A stretch of 50,033 bases of DNA from an uncultured Candidatus Peribacteria bacterium. Its GTDB lineage: Bacteria; Patescibacteriota; Gracilibacteria; Peribacterales; Peribacteraceae. Location of the stretch: the NCBI GenBank assembly GCA_964623835.1, contig CAZUVN010000001.1, positions 1 through 50,033 of the forward strand, in the 5' to 3' direction. Position numbers and translations under genes: made by a program. The notes beneath the pieces are model-generated. The model saw nothing but the letters and a program-made list of their open reading frames with translations, was not told where the DNA came from and searched no databases. This document shows positions 8,664 through 46,848 of the stretch, in pieces. Every line of letters starts with the position of its first letter. The stretch's first letter is position 1.

Positions 8664-9615
8664 TCCAGAGAGCTCTCCATAGTGCCCCTAACACCAACCA
8701 GGGATGCCGCAGTGCGAACTTCTTGAAATTCCCACCGGCTGTTCCGCCTTGGGCAATAATCTTCCCGCCTTTGCGAATCTTCTTAAGGAATTTTCCGGCC
8801 ATGTCGGTCAATGCATCGTTGCGTGATTGAATGACAAGATTGCGATCATTCCCAGAGATGTGTTTCAGTAATTCTTCAAAGCAGCGGAAGCGATCGAACG
8901 CGCCGATGCCCTCGCGCTGGTTTGTCTCGCTGACGGAGCCGGGGTGTACACGGAAGCTGCCGCAGATGTCGGGAATGTAGTACCAATTGCTGATAAGCAA
9001 ACAACGCAGCGCGTATTCTTCATCAAGGTTCTGTTTCATGTCTTCCAAATACCATCCCGCTTTTTCGACGACGCTGCGTCGCAACATCACGAAGTCCGGT
9101 TCGCCGACGATATTCGGGTGAATGCCGCGCCTCACCCACCAACGGAATGTCTCGCGTCCATCGTGCACACCGGGCTTCAAGTTCTCCTTCCGGAAGGTTG
9201 CAGGATATTCGTAGAGCGTGAGTGACGGATTCGGCTCATCAGAAAAATAGCGATGCTCTAGTGACACAATGCCAACCGACGGATGCTCTTCCATTGCCTT
9301 CAGCCCCTTCGCCAGAAAAGCCGGTTCCCACACATCATCGGGGAAGAGGAATTGGATGTACGGCGCTGAGCCGAGTTTCATCGTCGCATTCCAGTTTCCG
9401 CCGATCCCTAATTTTTTACTGTTCGGATGCCAGCTGATGCGCGGATCGGAGAGATAGGGCTTCACCATCGCTTCCATGTCCACGGTCGATGCATCATCGT
9501 GGATGTACATCCGCCAGCGGGTTTCGGTCTGGGCCAGGGCACTGTCGATAGCCTGCTTAAAGTATGCAGGATTGCAGTTCCAGACCGGCACGCAGATGTC
9601 GATTAAGGCTCTCAC
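8656..9615 (-). CDS. family-2 glycosyltransferase
   Basis: 319-aa ORF. N-terminal ICVPVWNCNPAYFKQAIDSALAQT...IHDDAST is a typical GT-A/GT2 signature. Confidence 0.8.
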   Translation of the reverse strand: MRALIDICVPVWNCNPAYFKQAIDSALAQTETRWRMYIHDDASTVDMEAMVKPYLSDPRISWHPNSKKLGIGGNWNATMKLGSAPYIQFLFPDDVWEPAFLAKGLKAMEEHPSVGIVSLEHRYFSDEPNPSLTLYEYPATFRKENLKPGVHDGRETFRWWVRRGIHPNIVGEPDFVMLRRSVVEKAGWYLEDMKQNLDEEYALRCLLISNWYYIPDICGSFRVHPGSVSETNQREGIGAFDRFRCFEELLKHISGNDRNLVIQSRNDALTDMAGKFLKKIRKGGKIIAQGGTAGGNFKKFALRHPWLVLGALWRALWTR

Positions 9616-9621
9616 ACGCTC

Positions 9622-9702
9622 AGCTTATAGTTTTTAGGTTTTAGCTTCCAGAAGGGATTTTCCGGCTTTTCCCTGAAAGCTGAAAGCTATAAGCTGAAAG
9701 CT
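9622..9702. repeat. AGCT-type periodic-arm hairpin
   Basis: Left arm agcttatagtttttaggttttagcttccag and right arm tgaaagctgaaagctataagctgaaagct are imperfectly complementary. Lies between divergent gene starts. Confidence 0.8.
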
Positions 9703-9706
9703 CCGT

Positions 9707-10375
9707 ATGCGCATCGACGTGATCACCCTATTCCCGGCAATGTTCCAAGGACCCCTCACAGAGTCCATCCTCAAACGTGCTCAGGAGGAGAAGCTCCTAG
9801 AGATCAACTTCCATGATCTTCGGCAGTTCGGCGAAGGGAGTTATAAGCAGATTGATGACCGGCCGTACGGCGGCGGGGCGGGAATGGTGATGATGTGTGA
9901 GCCGATTGTGAAAGCGATTGAAACGATTACGGAAAACGGAAAACAGACATCGGATAGCAATCCGTATCGCATTTACTTCTCACCCCGCGGTGAACGTCTT
10001 GAGCAGCAGAAAGTTGAGCAGCTTGCGCAGAAACATGACTGGCTGATTCTGCTCTGCGGTCACTACGAAGGAATCGATCAACGAATTATTGATGGGGGAT
10101 GGATCGACGAAGAGATTAGCATCGGCGATTATGTGCTGACCGGTGGTGAGCTGCCGGCAATGGTACTGATTGATGCGGTCGCACGGCATATTCCCGGCGT
10201 GCTTGGCAAAGACGAATCTGCGCAGGACGAGAGTTTTTCTAAGTCTTTGGATCGTAAAAAAGAGTATCCGCATTACACCCGTCCCGAGGAGTTTCAGGGG
10301 CTAAAAGTGCCGGAAATTCTCCTTTCCGGAGACCACAAAAAGATCGCAGAATGGCGCAAATCGAAGATTCAGTAA
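9707..10375 (+). CDS. trmD: tRNA (guanine37-N1)-methyltransferase
   Basis: 222-aa ORF. MRIDVITLFPAMF, DDRPYGGGAGM, CGHYEGIDQR and SIGDYVLTGGELPAM are classic TrmD motifs. Confidence 0.95.
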   Translation: MRIDVITLFPAMFQGPLTESILKRAQEEKLLEINFHDLRQFGEGSYKQIDDRPYGGGAGMVMMCEPIVKAIETITENGKQTSDSNPYRIYFSPRGERLEQQKVEQLAQKHDWLILLCGHYEGIDQRIIDGGWIDEEISIGDYVLTGGELPAMVLIDAVARHIPGVLGKDESAQDESFSKSLDRKKEYPHYTRPEEFQGLKVPEILLSGDHKKIAEWRKSKIQ

Positions 10376-12143: not shown

Positions 12144-12729
12144 TTTGCCCTCTCAGATCCGCAAATTCCGGTAGTCCTGTAAAGCGCATACCATTGATGA
12201 AGTATGTTGGCACGAGCGTTACATCGAGTGTTCCAATTGTCTCGTGTTGAATGGCCATGATGTTTTGCAGAACATCGTCATTGGTCAGACAGGAGGAGAG
12301 TGCCGGATAGGTTGTGCGTCCCGTGAAGAGAAGGCGATGTACGTCTGCACCACTTCCGGCCAATACGCCGCATATGACAGCATGAGCTTGTGAGTCGCTC
12401 TGCGGATATTTCTGCAATGGGACCGAAACGATGGTGATACGAAGATGACCGGGCTGAATGAATTCGGCATCGAGTCGTGGCATCAGCACTCGCTCAAAAT
12501 CAACGCTGTAGGGAGAGTTGTAGTTCATGAACAGCAGCATCGATACCGGGGCGTTCGATGGCCCCAGTGTGAGGGCGCCGGAGACAGTCTGTGGAATGAA
12601 CGGTGCTACAGAACTCATACTCATCGCAGCACCGGATGCAGAAGAAGGTGCCTGTTGTATGGGCGCCTGGAGAGTGGTGCAGCTTACGCACAATGCGCCA
12701 AGTCCGATGATGAACAGATGATTGCGCAT
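12121..12729 (-). CDS. DsbA-like thioredoxin-fold lipoprotein lacking the CxxC motif
   Basis: 202-aa ORF with lipobox LGALCVSC. DsbA-like layout including C-terminal VPTYFINGMRF.G, but the active-site position reads NSPYS instead of CPxC. Confidence 0.6.
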   Translation of the reverse strand: MRNHLFIIGLGALCVSCTTLQAPIQQAPSSASGAAMSMSSVAPFIPQTVSGALTLGPSNAPVSMLLFMNYNSPYSVDFERVLMPRLDAEFIQPGHLRITIVSVPLQKYPQSDSQAHAVICGVLAGSGADVHRLLFTGRTTYPALSSCLTNDDVLQNIMAIQHETIGTLDVTLVPTYFINGMRFTGLPEFADLRGQINEALKR

Positions 12730-12732
12730 TTG

Positions 12733-12812
12733 AGCTTTCAGCTTATAGCTTTTAGCTTTCAGAACAAAGTAAATGCAGCGCTAGAAGCTAGCAGCTAGAA
12801 GCTATAAGCTTT
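12733..12812. repeat. AGCT-type periodic-arm hairpin
   Basis: Left arm agctttcagcttatagcttttagctttcag and right arm ctagaagctagcagctagaagctataagcttt are imperfectly complementary. Lies between divergent gene starts. Confidence 0.8.
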
Positions 12813-12816
12813 CGAT

Positions 12817-13569
12817 ATGAAACGCGTGATTATCCTTGGAATTCCGGTTGATGCTCTAACCCGCTCACAGGCGCTGGAGCGCATCAAATCCATGCTTGGC
12901 GAGTCACGGTTTCATCATGTGATGACGCCCAACAGTGAAATGCTCGTGGAGGCATCCAAGAATCCGCCATTTCATCAGCTCCTTCAACGTACAGATTTGA
13001 ACATTGCCGATAGCACAGGGCTGGTCTGGGCAGCTCGAAAGACCCATCAACATCTTCCCGAACGTGTGACAGGTGTTGATACGACGATCGACCTTTGCAG
13101 TACTCTGACATCCGATCATCCGGTGTTTCTGCTTGGTGCATGGGGAGATACGGCAAAGCGAGCGGGGGAGATCCTCAAACAGAAGAACCCGCAGTTGGTG
13201 ATTGCGGGGGCACTCAGCGGTTCGCCAAAAGAGGAGGATGCCGCAGATATCATCACGCAGATCAATAACAGCGGCGCACAGGTACTTCTTGTTGCCTTCG
13301 GTGCGCCAAAGCAGGATGTGTGGATCGACCGACATCGTGATCAGCTGAAGCACATTCGTGTGGCAATGGGCGTTGGGGGAACATTCGACTTTATTGCAGG
13401 TGTCCACAAACGGGCACCCACGTTGATGCAGAATCTGGGGTTAGAGTGGTTGTGGAGAGTGGTGAGGGAGCCACGGCGAATCGGACGGATTATCAATGCG
13501 GTGATTATCTTCCCGCTATCCGTTATCCGTTATCAGACGGCAAACGGTAAACGGAAAACGGATCACTGA
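12817..13569 (+). CDS. WecG/TagA/CpsF-family glycosyltransferase
   Basis: 250-aa ORF. ILGIPVD.....AL..I, MTPNSEML, NIADSTGLVWA, GAPKQDVWI and LGLEWLWRVVREPRR are family hallmarks. Confidence 0.85.
   Translation: MKRVIILGIPVDALTRSQALERIKSMLGESRFHHVMTPNSEMLVEASKNPPFHQLLQRTDLNIADSTGLVWAARKTHQHLPERVTGVDTTIDLCSTLTSDHPVFLLGAWGDTAKRAGEILKQKNPQLVIAGALSGSPKEEDAADIITQINNSGAQVLLVAFGAPKQDVWIDRHRDQLKHIRVAMGVGGTFDFIAGVHKRAPTLMQNLGLEWLWRVVREPRRIGRIINAVIIFPLSVIRYQTANGKRKTDH
13516..13563. repeat. CCGTTAT-type periodic-arm hairpin
   Basis: ctatccgttatccgttatc / caaacggtaaacggaaaacggat are complementary arms. They encode the last ~17 codons of the TagA-like CDS and sit at a 0-nt convergent junction. Confidence 0.8.
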
Positions 13570-14957: not shown

Positions 14958-16295
14958 ATGGACGCCATAACCTATCGCTCTCCAACGTTTTTTGATGACT
15001 TGGCCGGACATCCTGACAAGCATGTGCATCTTATTTTGATTGCGACCAAGCCGGATATCATCAAACAGATACCGTTGTATCTGGAGCTGAAGCGTCGCGG
15101 TCATTTGGTGCTTCTGGGTCATACCGGACAGCATTACGATGAGAATTTGAGTGGCGGCATGCTGAAAGAATTCGGTGTCGAGCCGGACTTCAATCTGAAT
15201 GTTCGCGGAGCGATGCACGAGGTGGTCAGTCAGATTATCGGGCGACTCGGGTATCTGATTGGTGAGCTGAAAGAGAAAGGGAAGATTGTGATTCCGTACG
15301 TTCACGGCGATACGACGACAGCGATGGCTGCGAGCAATGCCGGGTATTGTCATGGATTTGCATCGGTCCACGTGGAGGCTGGCATCCGCACACTAACGCC
15401 GAAGTATGCAGATTTCAGTTCTCAGATGTCAGATGACAGCACGGATGGGTTTGATGTCGATGCGTGGCGCACATTCCTGATGGATCCTAATAACTGGGAG
15501 CGCGGATCGCAGGAGCCGTTTCCCGAGCAGTTCAACACGCGATGCAGCGAAGCGGCGACCGGTGTGCACCTCGCTCCTGTTGAGCTGGATGCGATTTTCA
15601 TGCGTGACGAAGGCTTTGCCGATGATCGAATTTTCGTCGTTGGTAATTCGGTGGTCGATGCGACTATGGACGCATTGAATCGTGCAAAAGATTCCACGGT
15701 CTTCGATCGATATCCTGCACTTGCCGACGGTGATTTTGTGCGTTTCTGCATTCACCGTCGTGAGAACTGCATCAGCGAGGTTCGTTTTATGGCCATCTAC
15801 AATGCAATGAAAGGACTGATTGAAGACGGGCGCACGGTGTTGCTGATTAGCCTCTTTCAGACTGAAGCGGCCATCGATCGTTTCGGTCTTCGTGCAGAAG
15901 TCGAGGGGCTGGTGAAGCATCATCCGAATTTCATCTACTCACCGGTTTGGCCGGAGTACGTCGATGTGATTGCGGCCATGAACAAGGCAGCTGTCTGTGC
16001 GACGGATAGCGGATCGATGCAGGAAGAGATGAACGTCCTCGGTGTTCCGTGCGTGACCTTGCGTTTCGGCTCCGATCGCAGCGAATCGGCGATGATGGGC
16101 GGTAACCTGATTGCTCCTCCGGTCGACGGCGGTCTCATTAAAAAAATGATCGAGTACGCTTGGAATAATGCCGATATGCGCGCCACTAAGAAGATTTACG
16201 GTGAAAACGTCAGTGCCAAATGCATTGATGCAGTGGAGGATGTGCTGAAGAAAGGGGAGATCTTCCGCGATGAGGAAAAGCGACTTGGACTCTAA
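14958..16295 (+). CDS. wecB: UDP-N-acetylglucosamine 2-epimerase (non-hydrolysing type), with an extra internal segment
   Basis: 445-aa ORF. TGQHYD, HVEAGIRT, PFPEQFNTR and later GSMQEE-type motifs of the epimerase_2 family. About 40 aa longer than I expect between RT and PFPE. Confidence 0.85.
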   Translation: MDAITYRSPTFFDDLAGHPDKHVHLILIATKPDIIKQIPLYLELKRRGHLVLLGHTGQHYDENLSGGMLKEFGVEPDFNLNVRGAMHEVVSQIIGRLGYLIGELKEKGKIVIPYVHGDTTTAMAASNAGYCHGFASVHVEAGIRTLTPKYADFSSQMSDDSTDGFDVDAWRTFLMDPNNWERGSQEPFPEQFNTRCSEAATGVHLAPVELDAIFMRDEGFADDRIFVVGNSVVDATMDALNRAKDSTVFDRYPALADGDFVRFCIHRRENCISEVRFMAIYNAMKGLIEDGRTVLLISLFQTEAAIDRFGLRAEVEGLVKHHPNFIYSPVWPEYVDVIAAMNKAAVCATDSGSMQEEMNVLGVPCVTLRFGSDRSESAMMGGNLIAPPVDGGLIKKMIEYAWNNADMRATKKIYGENVSAKCIDAVEDVLKKGEIFRDEEKRLGL

Positions 16296-16336: not shown

Positions 16337-17755
16337 GTGCTTCAGCGTCTCCGCGAATCATTGGCGTTGTTCCTGATCGCGCTCCTGCCGTTCCATGCAT
16401 TTATCGTGACGGTGAAGACGCGGTTTCTGCTGGGGCCGGGTCATGCGCCCATGGGGGAGATTGCGATCTGGAAAGAGGCGGTGCTGGCGGTGATATTGTT
16501 GATAGCGGTGATCGAGCTTTTATTCAGAATTAAGAATGCAGGATTCAGAATTAGATTCGATCGAATCGATATTCTGATTAGTGGGTTGTTCGTTTTGGGA
16601 ATGTTGGTTTCGCTCGTCAATTCTCAATTCTCAATTCTCAATTCTCAATTTATCTACGGCATCAGGTATGACTTCGTCCCGCTCCTGAGCTTCGTACTAC
16701 TTCGCCGTGTCCCGTGGTCCGATCTCTTTTTTCAGCGTATCCGGAAAGTATTGATCACGGTCGGATCGATTGTTGCCGCCTACGGCATTCTCAGTTTCTT
16801 CCTGCCGCAGGCATTTTTCACATGGCTCGGATACAACGATTTACATTCACTCTATGTTCCGGATAGCCCCATCGCTCCGTTTCAGCAGATTGGCGGCACG
16901 GCACTGCGCCGTATTCAAAGTGTGATGAGTGGTCCGAATCAGTTGGGATTGTGGTTGCTCGTGCCGCTCGCTGCGGTACTCGCAAAGATCCAAGATCCAA
17001 GCCACAAGATCCAACAGAAAGTTTTGGATCTTGGAATGTGTCTCTTGGTTCTTACAGCTCTGCTGTTATCGTTCTCCCGTGCTGCCTGGATTGGTGCTGC
17101 TGTGATTATTGGTCTGAGCTTTTGGCCGGTTTTGCAATCGATGACGCGCAAAAAAGTGACGGGGCTCATCTCGTTACTTGTGTGCCTGATTGTCATTGCG
17201 GTGTTGATGTTCCCGTCTATCTTCCTTCGTTTTGCCTCATCACGTGGCCACATCGAGAATCCCATTCGAGCGATTGAGACAATGATCAATCATCCATTGG
17301 GTCTGGGGCTTGGCACTGCCGGTCCGGCATCCAATCGCACCAGTGATGCATGTGTCATGCTTGATGAGGGGAGTGATGCAAGTTGGGCGACGGCACATCC
17401 GAATCTGTGTGTCTTTGTCGGACAGGCACAGGTGCAACCAAGTAATCGCGATTGTCAGTGCCCATTCCTGCCCGAAAACTGGTATCTGCAGATTGGGGTG
17501 GAGATGGGGTGGATTGGTTTAGCGATGTATCTGGCATTGGTCATTGTTGTCATTCAGCGGTTATGGCGAATTCGATATCCGATATCCGATATCCGTTATC
17601 AGATATCTAAAACTGTTCTTGTACCCGCATTCCTTGCGCTCAGCATCGCAGCAATGTTTCTCCACGCATGGGAGGACAGTGCAGTGGCGTACACAGTGTG
17701 GATCTTGATGGCTACGGTGCTAACACCGCACGCAGTTCGTCATCTGCGAACATGA
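16337..17755 (+). CDS. O-antigen ligase/polymerase-like (Wzy_C-type) membrane protein
   Basis: 472-aa ORF, polytopic, with LLSFSRAAWIGAAVI typical of the O-antigen-ligase domain. GTG start. Contains three embedded periodic repeats. Confidence 0.65.
   Translation: MLQRLRESLALFLIALLPFHAFIVTVKTRFLLGPGHAPMGEIAIWKEAVLAVILLIAVIELLFRIKNAGFRIRFDRIDILISGLFVLGMLVSLVNSQFSILNSQFIYGIRYDFVPLLSFVLLRRVPWSDLFFQRIRKVLITVGSIVAAYGILSFFLPQAFFTWLGYNDLHSLYVPDSPIAPFQQIGGTALRRIQSVMSGPNQLGLWLLVPLAAVLAKIQDPSHKIQQKVLDLGMCLLVLTALLLSFSRAAWIGAAVIIGLSFWPVLQSMTRKKVTGLISLLVCLIVIAVLMFPSIFLRFASSRGHIENPIRAIETMINHPLGLGLGTAGPASNRTSDACVMLDEGSDASWATAHPNLCVFVGQAQVQPSNRDCQCPFLPENWYLQIGVEMGWIGLAMYLALVIVVIQRLWRIRYPISDIRYQISKTVLVPAFLALSIAAMFLHAWEDSAVAYTVWILMATVLTPHAVRHLRT
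16522..16650. repeat. GAATT-type periodic-arm element inside a CDS
   Basis: Left arm attcagaattaagaatgcaggattcagaattagattc (16522-16558). Right arm aattctcaattctcaattctcaattctcaatt (16619-16650). Read in frame as FRIKNAGFRIRF ... NSQFSILNSQF. Confidence 0.8.
16985..17053. repeat. AAGATCC-type periodic-arm hairpin inside a CDS
   Basis: aagatccaagatccaagccacaagatccaac / ttttggatcttggaatgtgtctcttggttctt are complementary arms. In frame (KIQDPSHKIQQKVLDLG...). Confidence 0.75.
17573..17607. repeat. GATATCC/CCGTTAT-type tandem repeat inside a CDS
   Basis: cgatatccgatatccgatatccgttatcagatatc, in frame (RYPISDIRYQIS). Confidence 0.8.
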
Positions 17756-18232: not shown

Positions 18233-20074
18233 ATGGAAGCCCAGATTCACTCCGGCTCGATTGTCATTCTGGATTTCGGCGGACAGTACGCCCATCTCAT
18301 TGCCCGTCGTGTTCGCGAGAGTGGGGCTTTTTCGCAAATTCTTCCTGCCGAAACGCCGGTTGATCAACTCAAAGAAGTTGCCGGCATCATTCTGTCCGGT
18401 GGACCCCAGAGTGTGTATGACGCAGGAAGTCCGCAGGCCGATCCTGCCATTCTCGAACTCGGTGTTCCGGTGCTCGGTATCTGTTACGGACACCAGTGGC
18501 TGGCACAGACAATGGGCGGAAAAGTCAGCGGCGGAAAGACGAAGGAGTATGGTCATACGCCTATCCGCGTGACTCAGGGTGGCACACTCTTTAATGGATT
18601 GCCGAATGAATTTGTCGTGTGGATGTCCCATGGAGATGAGGTATCGGAGATGCCCTCGGGGTTCGTGCAGGCTGCGTCATCGGACAGCTGTACCAATGCG
18701 GCAATGGCAAATGAGAGTAGGCATATCTATGGTGTGCAGTTTCATTTGGAAGTCGTTCACTCGCAGTACGGCGCGGATATTCTGAAGCGGTTTGTTGATG
18801 TATGTCATGCAACGCCATGGTCAATCGAAGGCTATGCACAGCGCATCGGAACCGAAATTCTCAATGAGATCGGCGATCGCAGAGTGTTCATGATGGTCAG
18901 TGGTGGCGTTGACTCAACTGTTGCATTCACGGTGCTCAACGAAGTACTCGGTCCGCACCGTGTGCAGGGCTTGTTGGTTGATACGGGTTTGATGCGTAAG
19001 AACGAAGTCCGCAACATCAAGAACGCATTCGATCTGTTCGGCATCGATAACCTGCGTATTGTCGACGCGTCTGATGAGTTCTTCGCGAATTTGAAAGGCG
19101 TTACCGACCCCGAGAAAAAGCGCCAGATTATTGGTGATACGTTCTTGGCCGTGCAGAAACGCGAGAGCGATGCGATGAATCTGAAACTGGAAGATGGTTG
19201 GATGCTGGGGCAGGGGACCATTTACCCCGACACGATCGAGACCGGTGGTACCAAGCATGCTGATAAAATTAAGACGCATCATAACCGTGTCGAGGCCGTG
19301 CAGAAGATGATCGATGCGGGGTTGGTGATTGAGCCGTTGAAAGATCTGTACAAAGACGAAGTCCGCAAACTCGGCGAAGAACTGCGCCTTCCTCCGCCAC
19401 TCGTGTGGCGTCATCCGTTCCCAGGTCCGGGGCTTGGTGTGCGTATTCTGTGTGGCGATAAATCGGACGAATTAAGAATGCAGAATGCAGAATTAAGAAT
19501 TCCGAATGCAGACGGACATAATTCTCAATTCTCAATTCTCAATTCTGAATCATATCGTGTGATGCCGGTGAGGAGTGTAGGAGTGCAAGGAGACGGTAGG
19601 ACGTACCGTCATGCCATTGCATTGTTCCATGAGCATGCATGTCGAGTGACAGAGGAAGACCGTCGACTGGCAACTCAAGTACCAAATGTAGTTCCAGAAC
19701 TGAATCGCGTGCTGCTCTGTACGTCGCACGACCATCCTGTCGATTTCATCTTCACTGCTTCCACCATCACACGCGAGCGTGCAACGCTGTTGCAAGAAGC
19801 CGATGCGATTGTCGACGAAGAGATGCACCGCGCCGATCTCTACGATCGCATTTGGCAGTTCCCGGTTGTGCTCGTGCCGTTTGGAACATCGGAAGGGGGA
19901 GAGTCGATTGTGCTGCGCCCCATCGATTCACAGGAAGCCATGACCGCCGAGGCGATTGCCCTGCCAGAAGATGTCCTCAAACGGATGACCGATCGGTTGC
20001 TCCAGCTCGATGGCATCGATTGTGTGTTCTTGGATCTGACGAACAAACCGCCCGCTACCATTGAGTGGGAGTGA
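18233..20074 (+). CDS. guaA: GMP synthase (glutamine-hydrolysing)
   Basis: 613-aa ORF. GATase domain (ILDFGGQY, GICYGHQ), ATP-PPase loop SGGVDSTV, HPFPGPGLGVR and C-terminal KPPATIEWE. Confidence 0.95.
   Translation: MEAQIHSGSIVILDFGGQYAHLIARRVRESGAFSQILPAETPVDQLKEVAGIILSGGPQSVYDAGSPQADPAILELGVPVLGICYGHQWLAQTMGGKVSGGKTKEYGHTPIRVTQGGTLFNGLPNEFVVWMSHGDEVSEMPSGFVQAASSDSCTNAAMANESRHIYGVQFHLEVVHSQYGADILKRFVDVCHATPWSIEGYAQRIGTEILNEIGDRRVFMMVSGGVDSTVAFTVLNEVLGPHRVQGLLVDTGLMRKNEVRNIKNAFDLFGIDNLRIVDASDEFFANLKGVTDPEKKRQIIGDTFLAVQKRESDAMNLKLEDGWMLGQGTIYPDTIETGGTKHADKIKTHHNRVEAVQKMIDAGLVIEPLKDLYKDEVRKLGEELRLPPPLVWRHPFPGPGLGVRILCGDKSDELRMQNAELRIPNADGHNSQFSILNSESYRVMPVRSVGVQGDGRTYRHAIALFHEHACRVTEEDRRLATQVPNVVPELNRVLLCTSHDHPVDFIFTASTITRERATLLQEADAIVDEEMHRADLYDRIWQFPVVLVPFGTSEGGESIVLRPIDSQEAMTAEAIALPEDVLKRMTDRLLQLDGIDCVFLDLTNKPPATIEWE
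19469..19551. repeat. GAATT-type periodic-arm element in frame inside guaA
   Basis: gaattaagaatgcagaatgcagaattaagaattccgaatgcaga ... aattctcaattctcaattctcaattctgaatc. The right arm shares 27 identical nt with 16619-16645. Confidence 0.85.
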
Positions 20075-20141
20075 TGTGACGAATCATCTTCTGCATCGTA
20101 TACAGTTCTCAATCTAATTTCCCTGTATACTCGTATCTACG

Positions 20142-20705
20142 ATGGCTCTTCCCGAATTACCGGAGGCTGAATTGCAGAAACTGATTGCGCAGGCCCAAGA
20201 GGGCGATACCGAGGCTTTTGCCAAGGTTTACGATCAGTTCTTCCTGCCCGTATACCGCTACTGTGCGTTTCGTCTGCCCAAAGAGGTAGCCGAAGACACG
20301 ACAGCGGATATTTTCGTGAAAGCCTGGGAAAAGCTGCACACCTACAAATTGCACAAAAATGTGCCGTTCGGGGCGTGGATCTTCCGTATTGCCCGCTACA
20401 GCGTCATCGACGTGTACCGCAGTCAGCGTGGATTTGAAGAGGTGTCCGATGAAACGCCGGATACCGATCAGCTCAACAGCGCCGAAGATCGTTTGCATCG
20501 CGGTGAAACCCTGAGAATCGTCCGTTCTGCGCTCGATCAATTGCCGCAGCGATACCGCGAAATTTTATTGCTCACCTACGTGTCAGAACTGCCCTATAGC
20601 GAGGTTGCACGGGTTCTGCGGATGTCCGAAGGAGGAGTCCGTATCCTCAAGATGCGCGCACTACGAAAATTTGAGGCCCTTTTACCGCCGGAAATGCGGG
20701 AATAG
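20142..20705 (+). CDS. ECF-type RNA polymerase sigma factor
   Basis: 187-aa ORF. Region 2 (FRLPKEVAEDTTADIFVKAW, IARYSVIDVYR) and region 4 (LPYSEVARVLRMSEGGVRILKMRAL). Confidence 0.9.
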   Translation: MALPELPEAELQKLIAQAQEGDTEAFAKVYDQFFLPVYRYCAFRLPKEVAEDTTADIFVKAWEKLHTYKLHKNVPFGAWIFRIARYSVIDVYRSQRGFEEVSDETPDTDQLNSAEDRLHRGETLRIVRSALDQLPQRYREILLLTYVSELPYSEVARVLRMSEGGVRILKMRALRKFEALLPPEMRE

Positions 20706-27912: not shown

Positions 27913-27996
27913 AATGCAGAATTGAGAATTCAGAATTAAGAATTAAATAGAGATTCCGCTTAAAAATTCTGAATCCTACATTCTGAATTCTGAATC
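27913..27996. repeat. GAATT-type periodic-arm hairpin (intergenic copy)
   Basis: aatgcagaattgagaattcagaattaagaatt ... aattctgaatcctacattctgaattctgaatc are complementary arms. Same family as 16522-16650 and 19469-19551. Confidence 0.85.
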
Positions 27997-28575
27997 TTAT
28001 CTACCCGCAGTTTGCATAATTCCCGCCTTTCGTCGCAGTTCATCCATCGACTGAATTCGGCCTTCGTTGAGCATTTTCAGCAGAATCTTTGCCGTCTGAA
28101 TCACATCCGGCAGCGCACGGTGGCGGTTTTCCGGCAGTGAAAGACCGAAGCGCTCGCTTAAAATATCGAGATTATGACGGAAAGCAGTGGGATACAGGTT
28201 CTGGCTCAGTCGCATGGTACAGACACACTCCGGCAGCTCGATATACCCCCAGCAGAACTCCTTTTCACATTCCAAAAAGCCCATATCAAACTGTGCGTTG
28301 TGAGCGACCAAAATCGATCCCTTTGCGAATTCCAGGAACTCCGGAAGCACGGTCATGATGGTCGGCGCATCGGCGACGTCCGATTCATCGATTTTGTTTA
28401 TCTGTTTCGCTTCCCACGGAATATCGCGTTCTGGGTTCACAAATGTCGAGAATGTCCGGTCTTCCAAAATAATGCCGTTTTCAATGCGAACGCCCGCAAT
28501 TTCAACAATCCTGTGCCCTTTGCGTGGGTCCAGTCCGGTCGTCTCGGTATCGAAAACAGTCAGCGGAGGAAGCAT
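27997..28575 (-). CDS. DnaQ-like 3'-5' exonuclease (DNA polymerase III epsilon family)
   Basis: 192-aa ORF. Exo I VFDTETTGLDP, Exo II LVAHNAQFDMGFL and Exo III HRALPDV. Confidence 0.85.
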   Translation of the reverse strand: MLPPLTVFDTETTGLDPRKGHRIVEIAGVRIENGIILEDRTFSTFVNPERDIPWEAKQINKIDESDVADAPTIMTVLPEFLEFAKGSILVAHNAQFDMGFLECEKEFCWGYIELPECVCTMRLSQNLYPTAFRHNLDILSERFGLSLPENRHRALPDVIQTAKILLKMLNEGRIQSMDELRRKAGIMQTAGR

Positions 28576-28663
28576 GGGCGAGAACTATAGCTGACCCGGC
28601 GGCAGGCAACAGAAAGTTCCTTGTACATTTGGCAATCAAGCGTTGCGAAATCATAAAAGTATG

Positions 28664-28730
28664 AAATTGCTAAACTGTTAAATTGTTAAATTGCTCGGTA
28701 TCTGTTAACAATTTAGCAATTTAACAAATT
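28664..28730. repeat. TTAAATTG-type periodic-arm hairpin
   Basis: aaattgctaaactgttaaattgttaaattgct / tgttaacaatttagcaatttaacaaatt are complementary arms, 5 nt upstream of the nth ATG. Confidence 0.8.
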
Positions 28731-28735
28731 CTATC

Positions 28736-29464
28736 ATGCCGCCTCGTTCGGATGCCGTCCCACTGGATCGAGTCATGAAGGAGTTAGATGCGTTGTACGA
28801 TCCGCCAAAGACATTTCTGCATTTCCGAACGCCGGTCGATTTGATGGTTGCGGTTATTTTGAGTGCGCAGTGTACCGATGCCCGCGTGAACATCGTGACG
28901 GAGACAATTCTCTACCCGAAATATAAGACCGCGAAGGATTACGTCGATGTGCCCCGTAATGAGCTGGAGAAAGATATCCAGAGCTGCGGAACGTTTCGCA
29001 TGAAGGCGAAGTATATTCAGGAAGCGTGTGCCATGTTGATCAATCGTTTTAACAATGACATGCCGCGAACCATTGCAGAGTTAACCCAGATGCCCGGTGT
29101 CGGTCGTAAAACCGCATCGGTGATTCTTGCCGCCGCGTTCGATATCAACGAGGGGATTGCAGTCGACACCCATGTGCAGCGTGTTGCTCAACGACTTGGA
29201 CTTTCTGCTTCGTCCGACGTGAAAAAAATCGAATTAGATTTGATGGCAGCTGCGCCGCAAAAACGTTGGCGTGAGGTGACCACGTTGATTATCAGTCATG
29301 GACGTGCGGTTTGCACGGCGCGTGCACGGAAGTGTGGGGGGTGCGTCTTCAAAGAAGATTGCCCGTCATCGCTGGTGATGGGGCGAAGCGATAAGGCTGC
29401 TCCCCGCCTACGCCGAGGCTTTGGCGAGCAGGCGAAGAAGAGTGGGATGGGGCGCAAAAAATAA
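28736..29464 (+). CDS. nth: endonuclease III
   Basis: 242-aa ORF. HhH-GPD (LTQMPGVGRKTASVIL), catalytic D in IAVDTHV and a C-x6-C-x2-C-x5-C Fe-S cluster loop. Basic C-terminal tail. Confidence 0.9.
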   Translation: MPPRSDAVPLDRVMKELDALYDPPKTFLHFRTPVDLMVAVILSAQCTDARVNIVTETILYPKYKTAKDYVDVPRNELEKDIQSCGTFRMKAKYIQEACAMLINRFNNDMPRTIAELTQMPGVGRKTASVILAAAFDINEGIAVDTHVQRVAQRLGLSASSDVKKIELDLMAAAPQKRWREVTTLIISHGRAVCTARARKCGGCVFKEDCPSSLVMGRSDKAAPRLRRGFGEQAKKSGMGRKK

Positions 29465-38845: not shown

Positions 38846-41236
38846 TTACCGGTTGAATGCAGGAGATGCCGCAGCCTTTCGCAGGAGCCAGCGGGCAATC
38901 ACCATACCCGTGAACATCGAGATCACGACACCAAGTCCTAGGGTAACCGCGAAGCCGCGGACAATCGACGAACCGATAATGAACAGCAGGAGACAGGTGA
39001 TGATCGTCGAGATGTTGCTATCGCGGATGCTTGGCCATGCCTTCTCGAAGCCGATCTCCACTGCGGATTTTAAGCTCTTACCCTTCGCGCGCTCTTCGTT
39101 CATGCGTTCGAAGACCAGCACGTTGGTGTCGACGGCCATACCCATCGAGAGGATGGCTCCGGCGATACCTGCAAGTGTCAGCACGATGTACTGGTCGGTA
39201 ATCAGCAGCAACGGGAGTTTAAACAGCGCGAGGAAAATCAACGCGTAGATTGCCAGTGCGATGTTCGCGAAGACGCCGAGCAGGCGGTAGCGGACGAGGA
39301 GATACAGCATACAGATGATTGTGCCGATGAGAGCTGCAAGCAGAGACGAACGCAGGGCGTCAGCACCGAGCGTCGGCTCAACGGTGCGCTGGCCGCTCAG
39401 GTAGATAGGAGCGGGGATGGCACCGGTGTTGAGGTCTTGTGCAAGTAACTGCGCTTCTTGGACGTTGCGGCTACCGGTGATGACTGCTGATCCTCCGGTG
39501 ATTTCTCCTTGGACGGTGGGAGCCGATACCAGCTCGCCGCCGACGAAAATCGCGATGCGCTTACCGATGTTGTTCTTCGTTAGTTCCTGGAACAATTTGC
39601 CACCTTCTTCATCGAACAGAATCTGTACGACCGGGAGGTTCGTGGTCGGGTCCAATGTCACCGATGCGCTGCGGAAATGCTTGCCGTCCAGCTGTGTGTC
39701 TTTCCAGCCTGTCGGTTCCAACGAGAAGAAGAGTGTGCGCAGACGAACAGCTTCTTCTTCGGATGTGATCTTGCCGGTTTGAAGGCGGGAAAGAAGGTCG
39801 TCAGCGCGGACTTTTGCATTTGCACCGGTAACAGACAGCTCATCAAAGTTTGCTTTGTCCGGCGTCTGGTACGGAGCTTTGTCGACACGGATCAGGTGGT
39901 AGCCGAATGGCGTCTCAACCGGATCACTGATGATGCCCGTGGTCTGCGTGAAGGCGACATCCTCAAAGGACGGCACCAATTCCCCGCGGGCGATGCCGAG
40001 CAACTTTCCGCCGTTTGCACGGGATGTTCCGTCGGACTGCGTGCGAGCGATATCTTCGAACGTCGCTCCTGCTGCAATCTGATTCTTCAAGTCCTGCGCA
40101 CGTGCCAGTGCCTCTTCTTTGGTGCGAGTCACGTCGGTCGGAGCGGCATTCGCGCCCTTGTATGCGACAAGAATATGGCTGACATCGACCTGCTGGCGAC
40201 CGGCGGTAAAGAGGCGGAGGAACACAATGCTCGCCGAGCCGTCTTCTTTTTCGATGGCTTGCAGATCTCCCTGCTTCATATTGCGCAGCGCTCCTATCAA
40301 GCGAACGGAGAGAGGCGCATCGAGCGTAACATCGTTGCGGTAGGCCTGCGTGGTACCGGTTTCAATCTGTGTGATGCGTTCAAAGGCTTTGGATGCCTCC
40401 TGAATTACGCGGCCGGTCTGCGTGCGAGCCTGCAGCACTTCCACCAAGAAGATGCCGCTCATGGTTTGAATGACTGTCTGGCCGTTCTGATCCTGAACCG
40501 GTACATCGATGGCGCCGTTTATGCGCTGGACCCCTGCGGATGGTTGCAGGTTCCACATGCGGTCTAGGCCTGACGGAAGTTCGTCGCGGAAGAACCAGTG
40601 GTCCGGCTGGTAGCCGGTGCCGAGGTTGCTCATCATGTCTTCGCCGATCACTGCCAGCGAGACGCCGCTGCCGGTAATGCGCTTCTGTGCTGCATCGACA
40701 TTGGCGATGACGGACTGCACGTATTCTGCACTTGCCTCCGTCTCCTCTTCTTTAAATTCCAAGCGAATCGTTTTTCCAACCGTGTCGATACATTCCTGCA
40801 CGTCGATGACGCCGGGACACTCAACCAGCAGGTGCTTCTCGTCGCCGACGTAGGACGGCGTAATGGTTGCTTCGCTGACGCCCAGACTGTTGATGCGTCG
40901 CTCCAGTACGGTGCGGATTGCTTCAACAAGATTGCGGCCCTGCTCCTCAATAGCCGCTTTTTGTACACGGAGCTGATCGGCACGCTCGCCACCTCCTGCC
41001 GCTTCTGCTTCTGCAAGCTGTGCATTGATTTCATCCAGCTGCTGGCGGATCTCTTCTTCCGAGATGCGGAAATCGAGTTGTGTTCCACCGGCAAGATCGA
41101 GTCCCAAGTGGAAGCCCGGCCGTAGCCATGCAGGTGCCCAGCCAGCTTTGACGCTGTCTGGAAGTGCGACGATCACCAGAAGTGCCGCCAAAACGACGGT
41201 AAGGATCGTGCGTGGAGAAACAGTATTCTTGGCCAT
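38846..41236 (-). CDS. secD: protein translocase subunit SecD with an embedded parvulin-type PPIase domain
   Basis: 796-aa ORF. N-terminal TM, LGLDLAGGTQL, canonical IAIFVGGELVSAPTVQGEITGG...G and C-terminal TM bundle. Residues ~349-454 (VSHILV...FEDIA...GG.LG....LVPSFEDVAF....G.IS.PVETPFGYHLIRV) are rotamase-like. Confidence 0.85.
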   Translation of the reverse strand: MAKNTVSPRTILTVVLAALLVIVALPDSVKAGWAPAWLRPGFHLGLDLAGGTQLDFRISEEEIRQQLDEINAQLAEAEAAGGGERADQLRVQKAAIEEQGRNLVEAIRTVLERRINSLGVSEATITPSYVGDEKHLLVECPGVIDVQECIDTVGKTIRLEFKEEETEASAEYVQSVIANVDAAQKRITGSGVSLAVIGEDMMSNLGTGYQPDHWFFRDELPSGLDRMWNLQPSAGVQRINGAIDVPVQDQNGQTVIQTMSGIFLVEVLQARTQTGRVIQEASKAFERITQIETGTTQAYRNDVTLDAPLSVRLIGALRNMKQGDLQAIEKEDGSASIVFLRLFTAGRQQVDVSHILVAYKGANAAPTDVTRTKEEALARAQDLKNQIAAGATFEDIARTQSDGTSRANGGKLLGIARGELVPSFEDVAFTQTTGIISDPVETPFGYHLIRVDKAPYQTPDKANFDELSVTGANAKVRADDLLSRLQTGKITSEEEAVRLRTLFFSLEPTGWKDTQLDGKHFRSASVTLDPTTNLPVVQILFDEEGGKLFQELTKNNIGKRIAIFVGGELVSAPTVQGEITGGSAVITGSRNVQEAQLLAQDLNTGAIPAPIYLSGQRTVEPTLGADALRSSLLAALIGTIICMLYLLVRYRLLGVFANIALAIYALIFLALFKLPLLLITDQYIVLTLAGIAGAILSMGMAVDTNVLVFERMNEERAKGKSLKSAVEIGFEKAWPSIRDSNISTIITCLLLFIIGSSIVRGFAVTLGLGVVISMFTGMVIARWLLRKAAASPAFNR

Positions 41237-43824: not shown

Positions 43825-43894
43825 AAAGCTTATAGATTATAGCTTTTGGCTTCTAGGTTCTCTTCTAAAAACTAACAGCTAGAAGCTAGAAGCT
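43825..43894. repeat. AGCT-type periodic-arm hairpin
   Basis: aaagcttatagattatagcttttggcttctag ... agctagaagctagaagct. The right arm supplies the final codons (ASSF*) of the 43879-44721 CDS. Confidence 0.8.
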
Positions 43895-44721
43895 GTGAAC
43901 GGCAACTTCGTCACGTCCCACGGTACCGTCTTCTCCCATACATACCGACTCGTTCCGAGGGCATTGTTGTTCATCGGTAAATTCATCTTCATCCACTCAA
44001 GTTTCGCGGCAATGGCAGTATTCGTCTTTGCCCGTTCCTCAAACGCATCGCGGTGGAGGATGTACATCGCAAAGGTTTCTGCAAAGTCTTCAAACGCATC
44101 GCTCATGGCATAGCCGGAGACGAAGTCATTCTTCTTTGATTCGCGTTTCAACAGATCTGCTTCAGTCCAGCTGATGGAGAAGAATGCGGCAATCGGTGAA
44201 TCGTTATAGAACGGATCTGCGCCATCGACGAATGCGCTTTTACCGGAGAGAGGGGATCCTGGCATGTTGCTGTGAATAACGTGGGCACACTCGTGAATCA
44301 GCAGTCCAGTGAACTCTTCATCGGGAACATTGCCGGCCAGAATGATGGTCGTCTTTCCACCCAACCCGCGGTTCTTCGGGTTTTTGTACTGCACGAAGAA
44401 GTTTCGGAGGTGATCGCGGCAACCGCTTGGTAGAGCGCGAAGGACGGAATCGGCAAGTTTCTGGTGTGCCGGGGTGATATCCGACTTTTCGACTGCGGGA
44501 AGCAGTCGCTCCTGATCATTCGTTAACAGGGCCGCTGCCAGTCGCTTGCGCTTTTGACTGGAAGAAACCTTTTTGGGCGAAGCAACCGCATGATCGGCAT
44601 CATTCTGCGGAATGTTGGCTTCTACGCTTGTCACACGGGGAGTCAGCGCTATACTGGCGCTCAGAGCGAGTGCCCCCGAGAACATGATCGTAAGCCCGAT
44701 AATCGCCGTTTTACGGAACAT
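43879..44721 (-). CDS. secreted HExxH protein, possibly ATLF-like zinc metallopeptidase
   Basis: 280-aa ORF with an N-terminal signal/anchor, HECAHVIH, and a downstream AFEDFAETFAMY resembling the third-ligand EFFAE motif of lethal-factor-like peptidases. Confidence 0.5.
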   Translation of the reverse strand: MFRKTAIIGLTIMFSGALALSASIALTPRVTSVEANIPQNDADHAVASPKKVSSSQKRKRLAAALLTNDQERLLPAVEKSDITPAHQKLADSVLRALPSGCRDHLRNFFVQYKNPKNRGLGGKTTIILAGNVPDEEFTGLLIHECAHVIHSNMPGSPLSGKSAFVDGADPFYNDSPIAAFFSISWTEADLLKRESKKNDFVSGYAMSDAFEDFAETFAMYILHRDAFEERAKTNTAIAAKLEWMKMNLPMNNNALGTSRYVWEKTVPWDVTKLPFTASSF

Positions 44722-46773: not shown

Positions 46774-46848
46774 GGCCCTATCGTCTAACGGTTAGGACAG
46801 CAGGTTCTCATCCTGCAAATCGGGGTTCGATTCCCCGTGGGGCTGCCA
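46774..46848 (+). tRNA. tRNA-Glu (anticodon CUC), CCA encoded
   Basis: Cloverleaf folded by hand. Acceptor GGCCCTA/TGGGGCT, D stem GTCT/GGAC, anticodon stem GCAGG/CCTGC with loop TTCTCAT, T arm CGGGG-TTCGATT-CCCCG, discriminator G plus CCA. Confidence 0.9.

Follow-up and report, generated by a model that had tools for sequence, protein, structure and literature searches.

How does an essential enzyme come to carry, in frame, a palindrome made of short tandem repeats? The question is raised by positions 19469-19551 of a 50,033-nt stretch of DNA (hereafter the window: positions 1 to 50,033 of contig CAZUVN010000001.1, assembly GCA_964623835.1) from an uncultured Candidatus Peribacteria bacterium. 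The segment lies within guaA, which encodes the glutamine-hydrolysing GMP synthase. An initial annotation, made from the letters alone, presented it as a palindromic element of about 83 nt inserted in frame, with the Rickettsia palindromic elements (RPE) as closest precedent. The sequence observation is confirmed as described: a left arm and a complementary right arm stand in frame in guaA between two conserved blocks. The mechanism attached to it is not the best-supported one. With a probability of about 0.6, the segment is a tolerated, translated pair of imperfect heptanucleotide arrays derived by slippage, and one local manifestation of a repeat system that extends across the class. In that system, arrays of three to six heptamers, often as complementary hairpin pairs, occupy spacers and, in frame, loops of housekeeping proteins. 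The guaA case is one of these class-wide translated arrays and hairpins and not a single odd insertion.

Anatomy of the repeat segment and of the guaA linker

The product of the guaA open reading frame (ORF) matches solved GMP synthases (PDB 5tw7 and 1gpm, E about 1e-116), and its named homologs are GMP synthases of Peribacteria/Peregrinibacteria. The features of the gene are the following; L and P numbers designate the compared loci and proteins, and TRF stands for Tandem Repeats Finder.

18233-20074, plus strand: guaA, glutamine-hydrolysing GMP synthase of 613 aa, the host gene (ORF, PDB matches and named homologs)
19469-19512, plus strand: left heptamer array, six GAAT(T/G)NN units (TRF period 7 x5.4, period 21 x2.1)
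19513-19519, plus strand: loop CGGACAT, 7 nt, separating the two arrays
19520-19551, plus strand: right heptamer array, AATTCTC x3 + AATTCTG + AATC (TRF period 7 x4.4, 95% matches)
19504-19551, plus strand: net gain of 48 nt (16 codons) over the nearest orthologs that lack the insert (L002 and L025 have a clean 48-nt gap in the DNA alignment; protein alignment)
19574-19760, plus strand: tract 3' of the element in which the window groups with the distant L081 and not with the sister L002 (informative sites, sliding identity, tree)

The segment is stop-free, in frame within the ORF, and translates as ELRMQNAELRIPNADGHNSQFSILNSE, preceded by HPFPGPGLGVR and followed by PVRSVGVQGDGRTY. Its left array reads GAATTAA GAATGCA GAATGCA GAATTAA GAATTCC GAATGCA GA and is a 21-nt, three-unit duplication (GAATTAA-GAATGCA-GAATGCA, then GAATTAA-GAATTCC-GAATGCA) encoding ELRMQNA ELRIPNA. 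The right array encodes NSQFSILNSE, and the tryptic peptides predicted from the insert are MQNAELR and IPNADGHNSQFSILNSESYR. The arms are complementary at 25 of 32 positions (78%), a value matched by 0 of 2000 shuffles, and the RNA fold of the element reaches -28.2 kcal/mol against -19.8 +/- 3.3 for the shuffles (z = -2.5). The pairing is formed by 5-bp helices with 2x2 internal loops between them. This imperfect palindrome scored under the thresholds of the inverted-repeat finder and is weaker than its intergenic relatives, which are 83-94% complementary.

The features of an intrinsic (Rho-independent) terminator are absent from the guaA element, which is A+T-rich, has no T run and lies 520 nt upstream of the stop codon; T runs do end some of its intergenic relatives, for example 372-415. 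An Rfam scan of the whole window returned no RNA family at any hairpin, its sole match being a tRNA gene (46774-46845, plus strand). An intein, an intron and translational bypass were also considered, and were rejected because the segment is stop-free, in frame and of a net length that is a multiple of three.

Alignment with GuaA orthologs bears out the proposed insertion in part. The closest homolog (L002, protein P0002) is 597 aa long against 613 aa here, at 86-89% identity, and a net gain of 16 aa, in frame and within a variable linker between conserved blocks, is absent from the closest orthologs. The extent of 83 nt does not hold, since the left arm pre-exists in L002 and L025 and only 19504-19551 is extra. 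This gain takes in the right array together with the loop and the final unit of the left array. The remaining left array aligns to a weak NNCAGNN-periodic heptamer array in both insert-free loci and, as judged from this alignment, is ancestral at the guaA site.

The linker runs from the ATP-pyrophosphatase core (HPFPGPGLGVR) to the first C-terminal beta-strand (LPVxSVGVQGDGRTY). The region from GLGVRI to SVGVQGDGR is the most variable part of GuaA in Peribacteria; its modal length is 26 aa, and in the window it measures 42 aa. Placed on an AlphaFold model of GuaA (mean predicted local distance difference test score, pLDDT, of 80), the insert falls in a poorly defined linker: residues 411-440 score 54-62, and both sides at least 77. 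This hypervariable, low-confidence linker is probably a disordered or flexible loop. Two stretches of GuaA (residues 404-458 and 512-560) correspond to one and the same region of the E. coli enzyme (residues 411-466 and 416-525, respectively); the C-terminal dimerisation domain therefore seems to be present in two copies, as it is in eukaryotic GMP synthases. In the window protein, the first of them is devoid of the long helix, and the variable linker stands in its place.

Heptamer periodicity recurs in the guaA linkers of the class. In the DNA of the linker, lag-7 self-identity reaches 0.45 or more in 17 of 63 Peribacteria species and 0.5 or more in 12 of them; the corresponding count at lags 4, 5 and 8-11 is 0. 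The units are diverse: GGAATCA in L022, GGGAATG in L032, GAATTGA/AAATTGA in L006, L011, L044 and L057, GGACTTA in L018, L050 and L074, GCGGATA in L037, and GAATTAA/GAATGAA in L202. Arrays of the GAATT type occupy this linker in L006, L011, L044, L057, L021 and L202. A second, unrelated type of in-frame hairpin is found at the same site in L003:11216-11332, L029:3257-3343, L053:11210-11356 and L064:7973-8101, in the form of C-rich/G-rich palindromes (e.g. CCCCTCTCCCCC...GGGAGAGGGGG) that translate to Pro/Ser-rich and then Gly/Arg/Glu-rich peptides.

Heptamer arrays and hairpins in the window and across the class

The window contains 10 strong period-7 arrays, against 0, 0, 1 and 0 at periods 5, 6, 8 and 9. 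Most of them are complementary pairs occupying intergenic spacers (9620-9702, 12729-12810, 27913-27996, 43833-43898). In-frame elements are hosted by the Wzy_C ligase gene, which has three, by the UDP-GlcNAc 2-epimerase and by the C-terminus of WecG. The tandem-repeat and fold results thereby agree with the earlier remark that other loci use different k-mers within the same architecture. The loci are listed below, intergenic elements without strand.

923-953: AAGCTT-type 8-mer hairpin between convergent genes (TRF, fold)
9620-9702: AGCT-type paired heptamer hairpin filling the divergent spacer between a family 2 (GT2) glycosyltransferase gene and trmD (inverted repeats, fold)
12729-12810: AGCT-type paired heptamer hairpin filling the divergent spacer between a thioredoxin-like gene and wecG (inverted repeats, fold)
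13513-13562, plus strand: in-frame pair CCGTTAT x3 / ACGGAAA x3.7 at the C-terminus of the WecG/TagA glycosyltransferase (TRF, fold, Pfam)
15409-15439, plus strand: in-frame TCAGATG-type array in the UDP-GlcNAc 2-epimerase (TRF, Pfam)
16525-16651, plus strand: pair of the guaA type in the Wzy_C (O-antigen-ligase-like) gene (TRF, sequence comparison, Pfam Wzy_C)
16985-17053, plus strand: in-frame AAGATCC-type hairpin in the Wzy_C gene (inverted repeat I2; fold -27.3 kcal/mol)
17573-17607, plus strand: in-frame GATATCC array in the Wzy_C gene (TRF)
27913-27996: intergenic GAATT-type hairpin between peptide deformylase and RNase T-like genes (inverted repeats I5, I6 and I11, 83-94% complementary; fold)
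28664-28731: octamer-array hairpin AAATTGTT / TTAACAAT in a divergent spacer, kept in L002 (TRF, inverted repeats, fold)

The relatives of the guaA element that had been pointed out within the window are real. The right arm is identical to 16619-16645 over 27 nt, the left arm shares GAATTAAGAATGCAG with the Wzy_C copy (at 16527-16541), and the hairpin at 27913-27996 is about 75% identical to the guaA element over 83 nt and 84% complementary to its left arm. The motif GAATTNNGAATNNNGAAT, with at most one mismatch, occurs 13 times, always in the guaA, Wzy_C and 27913-27996 loci, for 0.11 occurrences expected. The Wzy_C pair is composed of a left array (16525-16556, harboring GAATTAAGAATGCAG) and a right array ((AATTCTC)x4.9, 16617-16651), its arms being separated by about 60 nt of coding sequence. 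Exact (AATTCTC)x3.9 arrays nevertheless turn up in unrelated metagenome contigs, more than 120 in number, whose GC contents range from 32 to 71%; several of these arrays have complementary GAGAATT arms. Since the exact 27-mer occurs in contigs of such different organisms, it is not specific to a family, and the 27-nt identity is no proof of a common mobile origin. In three loci of this metagenome scan (L120, L128 and L159), (AATTCTC)n arrays lie directly upstream of GTACCTTTGCA-like strings, which we take to resemble Bacteroidetes promoter motifs; if so, similar heptamer arrays would lie at promoters in unrelated phyla.

Three divergent-gene spacers of the window (9615-9707, 12729-12817 and 28575-28736) are almost entirely taken up by repeat hairpins, leaving no obvious room for two promoters, and TATAAG/TATAGT-like strings occur within the AGCT-type arms. 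Elsewhere in the window, a 796-aa ORF (38846-41236, minus strand) unites SecD/SecF domains and, at residues 347-452, a domain of the PpiC-type peptidyl-prolyl isomerases (rotamase), an unusual fusion.

The excess of period 7 extends to the class. In all loci fetched through GuaA, TRF detects 369 period-7 arrays, against 67 of period 6 and 110 of period 8, and period-7 arrays are nearly absent from eight non-Peribacteria control loci. In 1.26 Mb of Peribacteria DNA, 295 period-7 arrays of at least 2.8 copies were counted: 184 in ORFs (median host 473 aa), 90 intergenic and 21 at gene edges, with genes taken crudely as greedy ORFs of at least 90 aa. Array density is 4.6 times higher in intergenic than in coding DNA. 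A complementary partner array is found within 120 nt for 24-30% of the coding and 44-60% of the intergenic arrays, and for none in the reversed-sequence control. Units that are stop-free in all three frames make up 82% on the sense strand of coding arrays, 57% on the antisense strand and 49% in intergenic arrays; this sense-strand excess is consistent with the filter expected if the arrays are translated. Palindromic cores of 4 nt are not enriched overall among heptamer units (0.35 against 0.325 shuffled) and are more frequent in intergenic arrays alone (0.50). Units with AATT and AATG cores recur across the Peribacteria class.

Turnover, exchange and the competing readings

Comparison of orthologous sites between genomes reveals different units at one and the same place at four sites besides guaA. 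Site 17573 of the Wzy_C gene holds GATATCC in the window and L002, a two-arm GAAAATT/AATTATC hairpin in L001, a CATTCTC/AATTCTC array in L025 and AATTATC in L003, and site 16617 of the same gene holds AATTCTC in the window and L025, AATACTC in L003 and ATCAACA in L002. The site of the spacer hairpin 12729-12810 is occupied by an octamer-array hairpin in L003. The epimerase site exhibits TCAGATG in the window and L002, and an in-frame GGACTTA/TAAGTCC two-arm hairpin that adds 11 aa in L003. This last hairpin closely mirrors, in a different enzyme, the situation in guaA; it lies at L003:6021-6150, where a GGACTTA-type left arm and a GTCCTAA-type right arm are found between VHVEAGIRTLTP and DVxAWR. 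Arrays thus persist at orthologous sites over at least 20% divergence while their units change.

In guaA itself, an orthologous insert (NNTQYSILNIQYYRV) is borne by L081, a contig of the Joint Genome Institute (JGI; protein P0004). All of its units have changed in concert, the right ones to AATACTC (AATTCTC in the window) and the left ones to AAGATGC (AGAATGC in the window), and its arms are non-complementary, with 15 matches in 34 positions (44%), the background level. Between the left arms of the window and L081, the alignment presents a gap of about 20 nt, near three 7-nt units. In a GuaA tree from which the linker was left out, the window groups with the insert-free L002 and P0003, and P0004 falls in another clade beside the insert-free P0009; the insert-bearing lineages are therefore not sisters. 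Informative sites at which the window agrees with L002 or with L081 stand at 16:33 in 19574-19760, against 180:101 in three guaA segments outside 19291-19760. This incongruence suggests that the right arm and the downstream tract were exchanged between lineages by homologous recombination. The recA and Ruv recombination genes have been reported for Peribacteria (PMC4736985).

A second metagenome-assembled genome from a separate assembly (L001, contig CAYXNG010000040.1) possesses a 126-nt linker identical to that of the window. Its guaA (L001:454-2295) is 100% identical to the window gene (18233-20074) over about 1.4 kb (18400-19800), falling to 81-90% at the gene ends and to about 86% beyond, and the 58 differences between the two genes are all synonymous. 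Such a block indicates either a recent recombination or sweep of the segment, or a chimeric co-assembly. L001 was considered as a diverged witness of the element and rejected: its assembly is independent, but over the central 1.4 kb of guaA its identity to the window is 100% and therefore carries no information on constraint. Downstream of guaA, the spacer to a gene for an extracytoplasmic function (ECF) sigma factor measures 68 nt in the window (20074-20142) and about 500-700 nt in L001:2293-3008 and L002:11792-12300; on the P0003 contig, an opposite-strand ORF of 130 aa is called at the corresponding position.

These observations can be ordered into a plausible history. A GAAT-type heptamer array would be old at the guaA site and would have grown by a 21-nt duplication of three units, which kept the frame; the loop and the complementary AATTCTC array (48 nt, 16 codons) would then have been added, and this added part passed between lineages by homologous recombination. 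Replication slippage and the concerted homogenisation of units would generate arrays in general and drive their turnover, and sequence would now and then be copied from one locus to a similar array at another. Slippage would thus act as the generator and recombination as the spreader of neutral changes, of which those surviving within ORFs would be length changes in multiples of 3 nt and stop-free combinations of unit and frame. The units themselves illustrate this filter: the sequence that would pair perfectly with the right arm, (GAGAATT)n, meets a TGA within 21 nt in every phase, and (GAATTAA)x3 brings a TAA into frame. Mismatched spacers and a 21-nt superperiod are therefore required of any copy that is translated, and guaA has both; the coding copy would be an imperfect palindrome because only stop-free, frame-keeping combinations survive in ORFs.

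Several points weigh against this account. Slippage alone leaves unexplained why a complementary second array stands beside the first, and why units with AATT and AATG cores recur throughout the class. L002 lacks the 80-nt hairpin of 12729-12810 and has a spacer of about 20 nt instead, and this presence or absence between close relatives looks like copy-and-paste rather than growth in situ. The hairpin at 923-953 is near-identical (31 nt, 2 mismatches) to one at a non-orthologous locus, L001 6106-6139, 3' of efp; it has an irregular central unit, and it is the sole near-identical case, similarity being otherwise at the level of units. The elements of guaA and Wzy_C lie 3 kb from each other and agree in the unit types of both arms and in the order of the arms; in the L003/L081 clade, AATACTC arrays likewise occupy the two sites (Wzy_C in L003, guaA in L081). 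This points to exchange between loci. Finally, translation of the guaA insert is deduced from the ORF, and the division between coding and intergenic arrays is approximate because the gene calls are crude.

Three of the observations just mentioned (the hairpin present or absent at 12729-12810, the 31-nt hairpin at non-orthologous loci, the arm order common to guaA and Wzy_C) would also suit a discrete, non-autonomous mobile palindromic element, resembling RPE, miniature inverted-repeat transposable elements (MITE) or the hairpin doublets of repetitive extragenic palindromes (REPIN), that is copied into guaA and other loci by an enzyme encoded elsewhere, the heptamers being a family feature. 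Families of similar hairpins at several loci (GAATT-type at three, AGCT-type at at least six) and the unrelated C-rich/G-rich palindromes inserted in the guaA linker of four other loci go in the same direction. Such an element is nevertheless unlikely. The left arm is homologous to pre-existing sequence of insert-free orthologs, and the copies share heptamer units alone, with no common consensus in their loops, termini or flanks. No target-site duplication is seen at 19504/19551 or 12729/12810, the boundaries of the gain falling inside a pre-existing array. Pfam searches of the 49 long ORFs that fill the 50-kb window detect no domain of a transposase, integrase, reverse transcriptase or RAYT (the transposase that accompanies repetitive extragenic palindromes). 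The persistence of arrays at orthologous sites with changing units, the loss of the hairpin in L081 and the identical arrays of unrelated taxa are further arguments against it.

A further proposal, likewise of low probability, is that the paired complementary arrays form a distinct class of self-propagating hairpin repeats that need no transposase of their own and have colonised spacers and loops of essential enzymes across this class of the candidate phyla radiation (CPR). One array might seed its complementary partner, for example by template switching, after which recombination would homogenise the units and copy them between loci.

Selection of the hairpin or of the heptad array for a function, be it an mRNA structure that pauses ribosomes at a domain boundary, a signal for RNA stability or processing, or a protein-binding array, is improbable. 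It would account for the recurrence of arrays or hairpins in the guaA linker of many species, for the intergenic arrays that fill entire divergent promoter spacers, and for the hairpin at 9620-9702, which is 89% identical in L002 as compared to about 81% for the flanking genes. The identical 126-nt linker of L001 could be taken in the same sense, but this identity spans the whole 1.4-kb block and is not specific to the element. On the other side, the insert is dispensable in most close relatives, which function in its absence, and in L081 the orthologous insert is unable to form the hairpin. A fold better than z = -2 is seen in only 7 of about 65 linkers, and units differ freely between species at one site, so that no single binding specificity is conserved. 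The guaA element is most likely a tolerated passenger and not a functional module.

A chimeric or mis-joined repeat at the guaA site is hardly credible: short low-complexity repeats can mislead assemblers and L001 is mosaic relative to the window, but the reading frame is exactly kept and followed by the conserved downstream domain, a typical read exceeds the 83 nt of the element in length, the unrelated JGI contig has a homologous insert, and CAYXNG010000040.1 carries the segment unchanged, with an identical linker in a gene that differs elsewhere, which, coming from an independent assembly, rules out a local artefact.

Known repeat systems and significance

The RPE, attributed to Ogata et al. 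in 2000, are reportedly dispersed copies of a conserved consensus of at least 100 nt (about 100-150 nt). The guaA element resembles them in its outcome: palindromic repeats occur between genes and in frame in housekeeping genes, where they are translated as an extra surface-loop peptide that does not destroy the enzyme, and the in-frame gain of 16 codons is located at a structurally tolerant position (linker pLDDT 54-62). This part of the suggested precedent, a palindromic repeat translated in a housekeeping enzyme, is retained; membership and mechanism are not. Copies of the guaA type share only 7-nt units, with unrelated loops and flanks, and the repeats account for the identity of about 75% over 83 nt. 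Each arm is a tandem array, one of the two pre-exists at the site, and the hairpin formed in the window (78%, z = -2.5) is not formed by the orthologous insert of L081 (44%). The hosts also differ, being Peribacteria/Peregrinibacteria of the CPR and not Rickettsia.

Heptanucleotide simple sequence repeats offer a closer comparison. According to an earlier survey, as summarised in PMC4679880, heptanucleotides are the most abundant class of long simple repeats in prokaryotes, and slippage has been proposed as their origin. TAACTGA repeats are described in Beggiatoaceae and cyanobacteria, and heptamer arrays translated as 7-aa repeats, the orientation of which is limited by stop codons, have been discussed (PMC4679880). 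Head-to-tail 7-nt arrays are over-represented relative to other periods in the window and in all fetched loci. The likeness extends to the small size of the arrays (2-6 copies), to their being far commoner than those of neighbouring periods and to the proposed origin by slippage. The known heptamer arrays are mostly intergenic, whereas about 60% by count of the Peribacteria arrays are in frame in long ORFs, including enzymes of central metabolism. In addition, Peribacteria have many units per genome instead of one favoured heptamer, and complementary hairpin pairs are common. The short tandemly repeated repetitive (STRR) sequences and small dispersed repeats of cyanobacteria, associated with the names of Mazel (1990) and Elhai (2008), are said to form genome-wide families of tandem heptamers in hairpin contexts, with recent mobility and no obvious transposase. 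They belong to another phylum and have other units; they may be closer still.

REPIN, in turn, are hairpin-forming doublets with about 20 nt of conserved sequence per family, extragenic and co-occurring with a RAYT gene (PMC3116915). They share with the Peribacteria repeats the habit of populating intergenic spacers with short hairpin-forming doublets; no family consensus of about 20 nt, no extragenic confinement and, among the 49 window ORFs, no RAYT are found here. The Peribacteria genome paper makes no mention of heptamer repeats and reports strain variation mainly as indels of tens of bp in proteins (PMC4736985). Our literature search found no report of heptamer repeats in Patescibacteria or Peribacteria.

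In this uncultured class with small genomes, 7-nt arrays are thus not limited to spacers and are translated in loops of GMP synthase, UDP-GlcNAc 2-epimerase, WecG and a Wzy-type ligase. As a 7-nt unit is not divisible by three, any single-unit slip would frameshift an important gene. The survival of three-unit steps and of stop-free combinations leaves a signature of selection, namely the 21-nt superperiod, the mismatched spacers and the orientation bias. In practical terms, annotation by alignment and the comparison of strains can both be led astray by these arrays in CPR genomes. Should the repeats prove to be self-propagating, they would represent a previously unrecognised source of innovation in protein loops and of frameshift-prone sites in essential genes. 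The Peribacteria arrays provide a natural experiment on how simple repeats create and remodel protein loops, on how hairpin repeats originate with no obvious transposase, and on how far recombination moves such segments between lineages.

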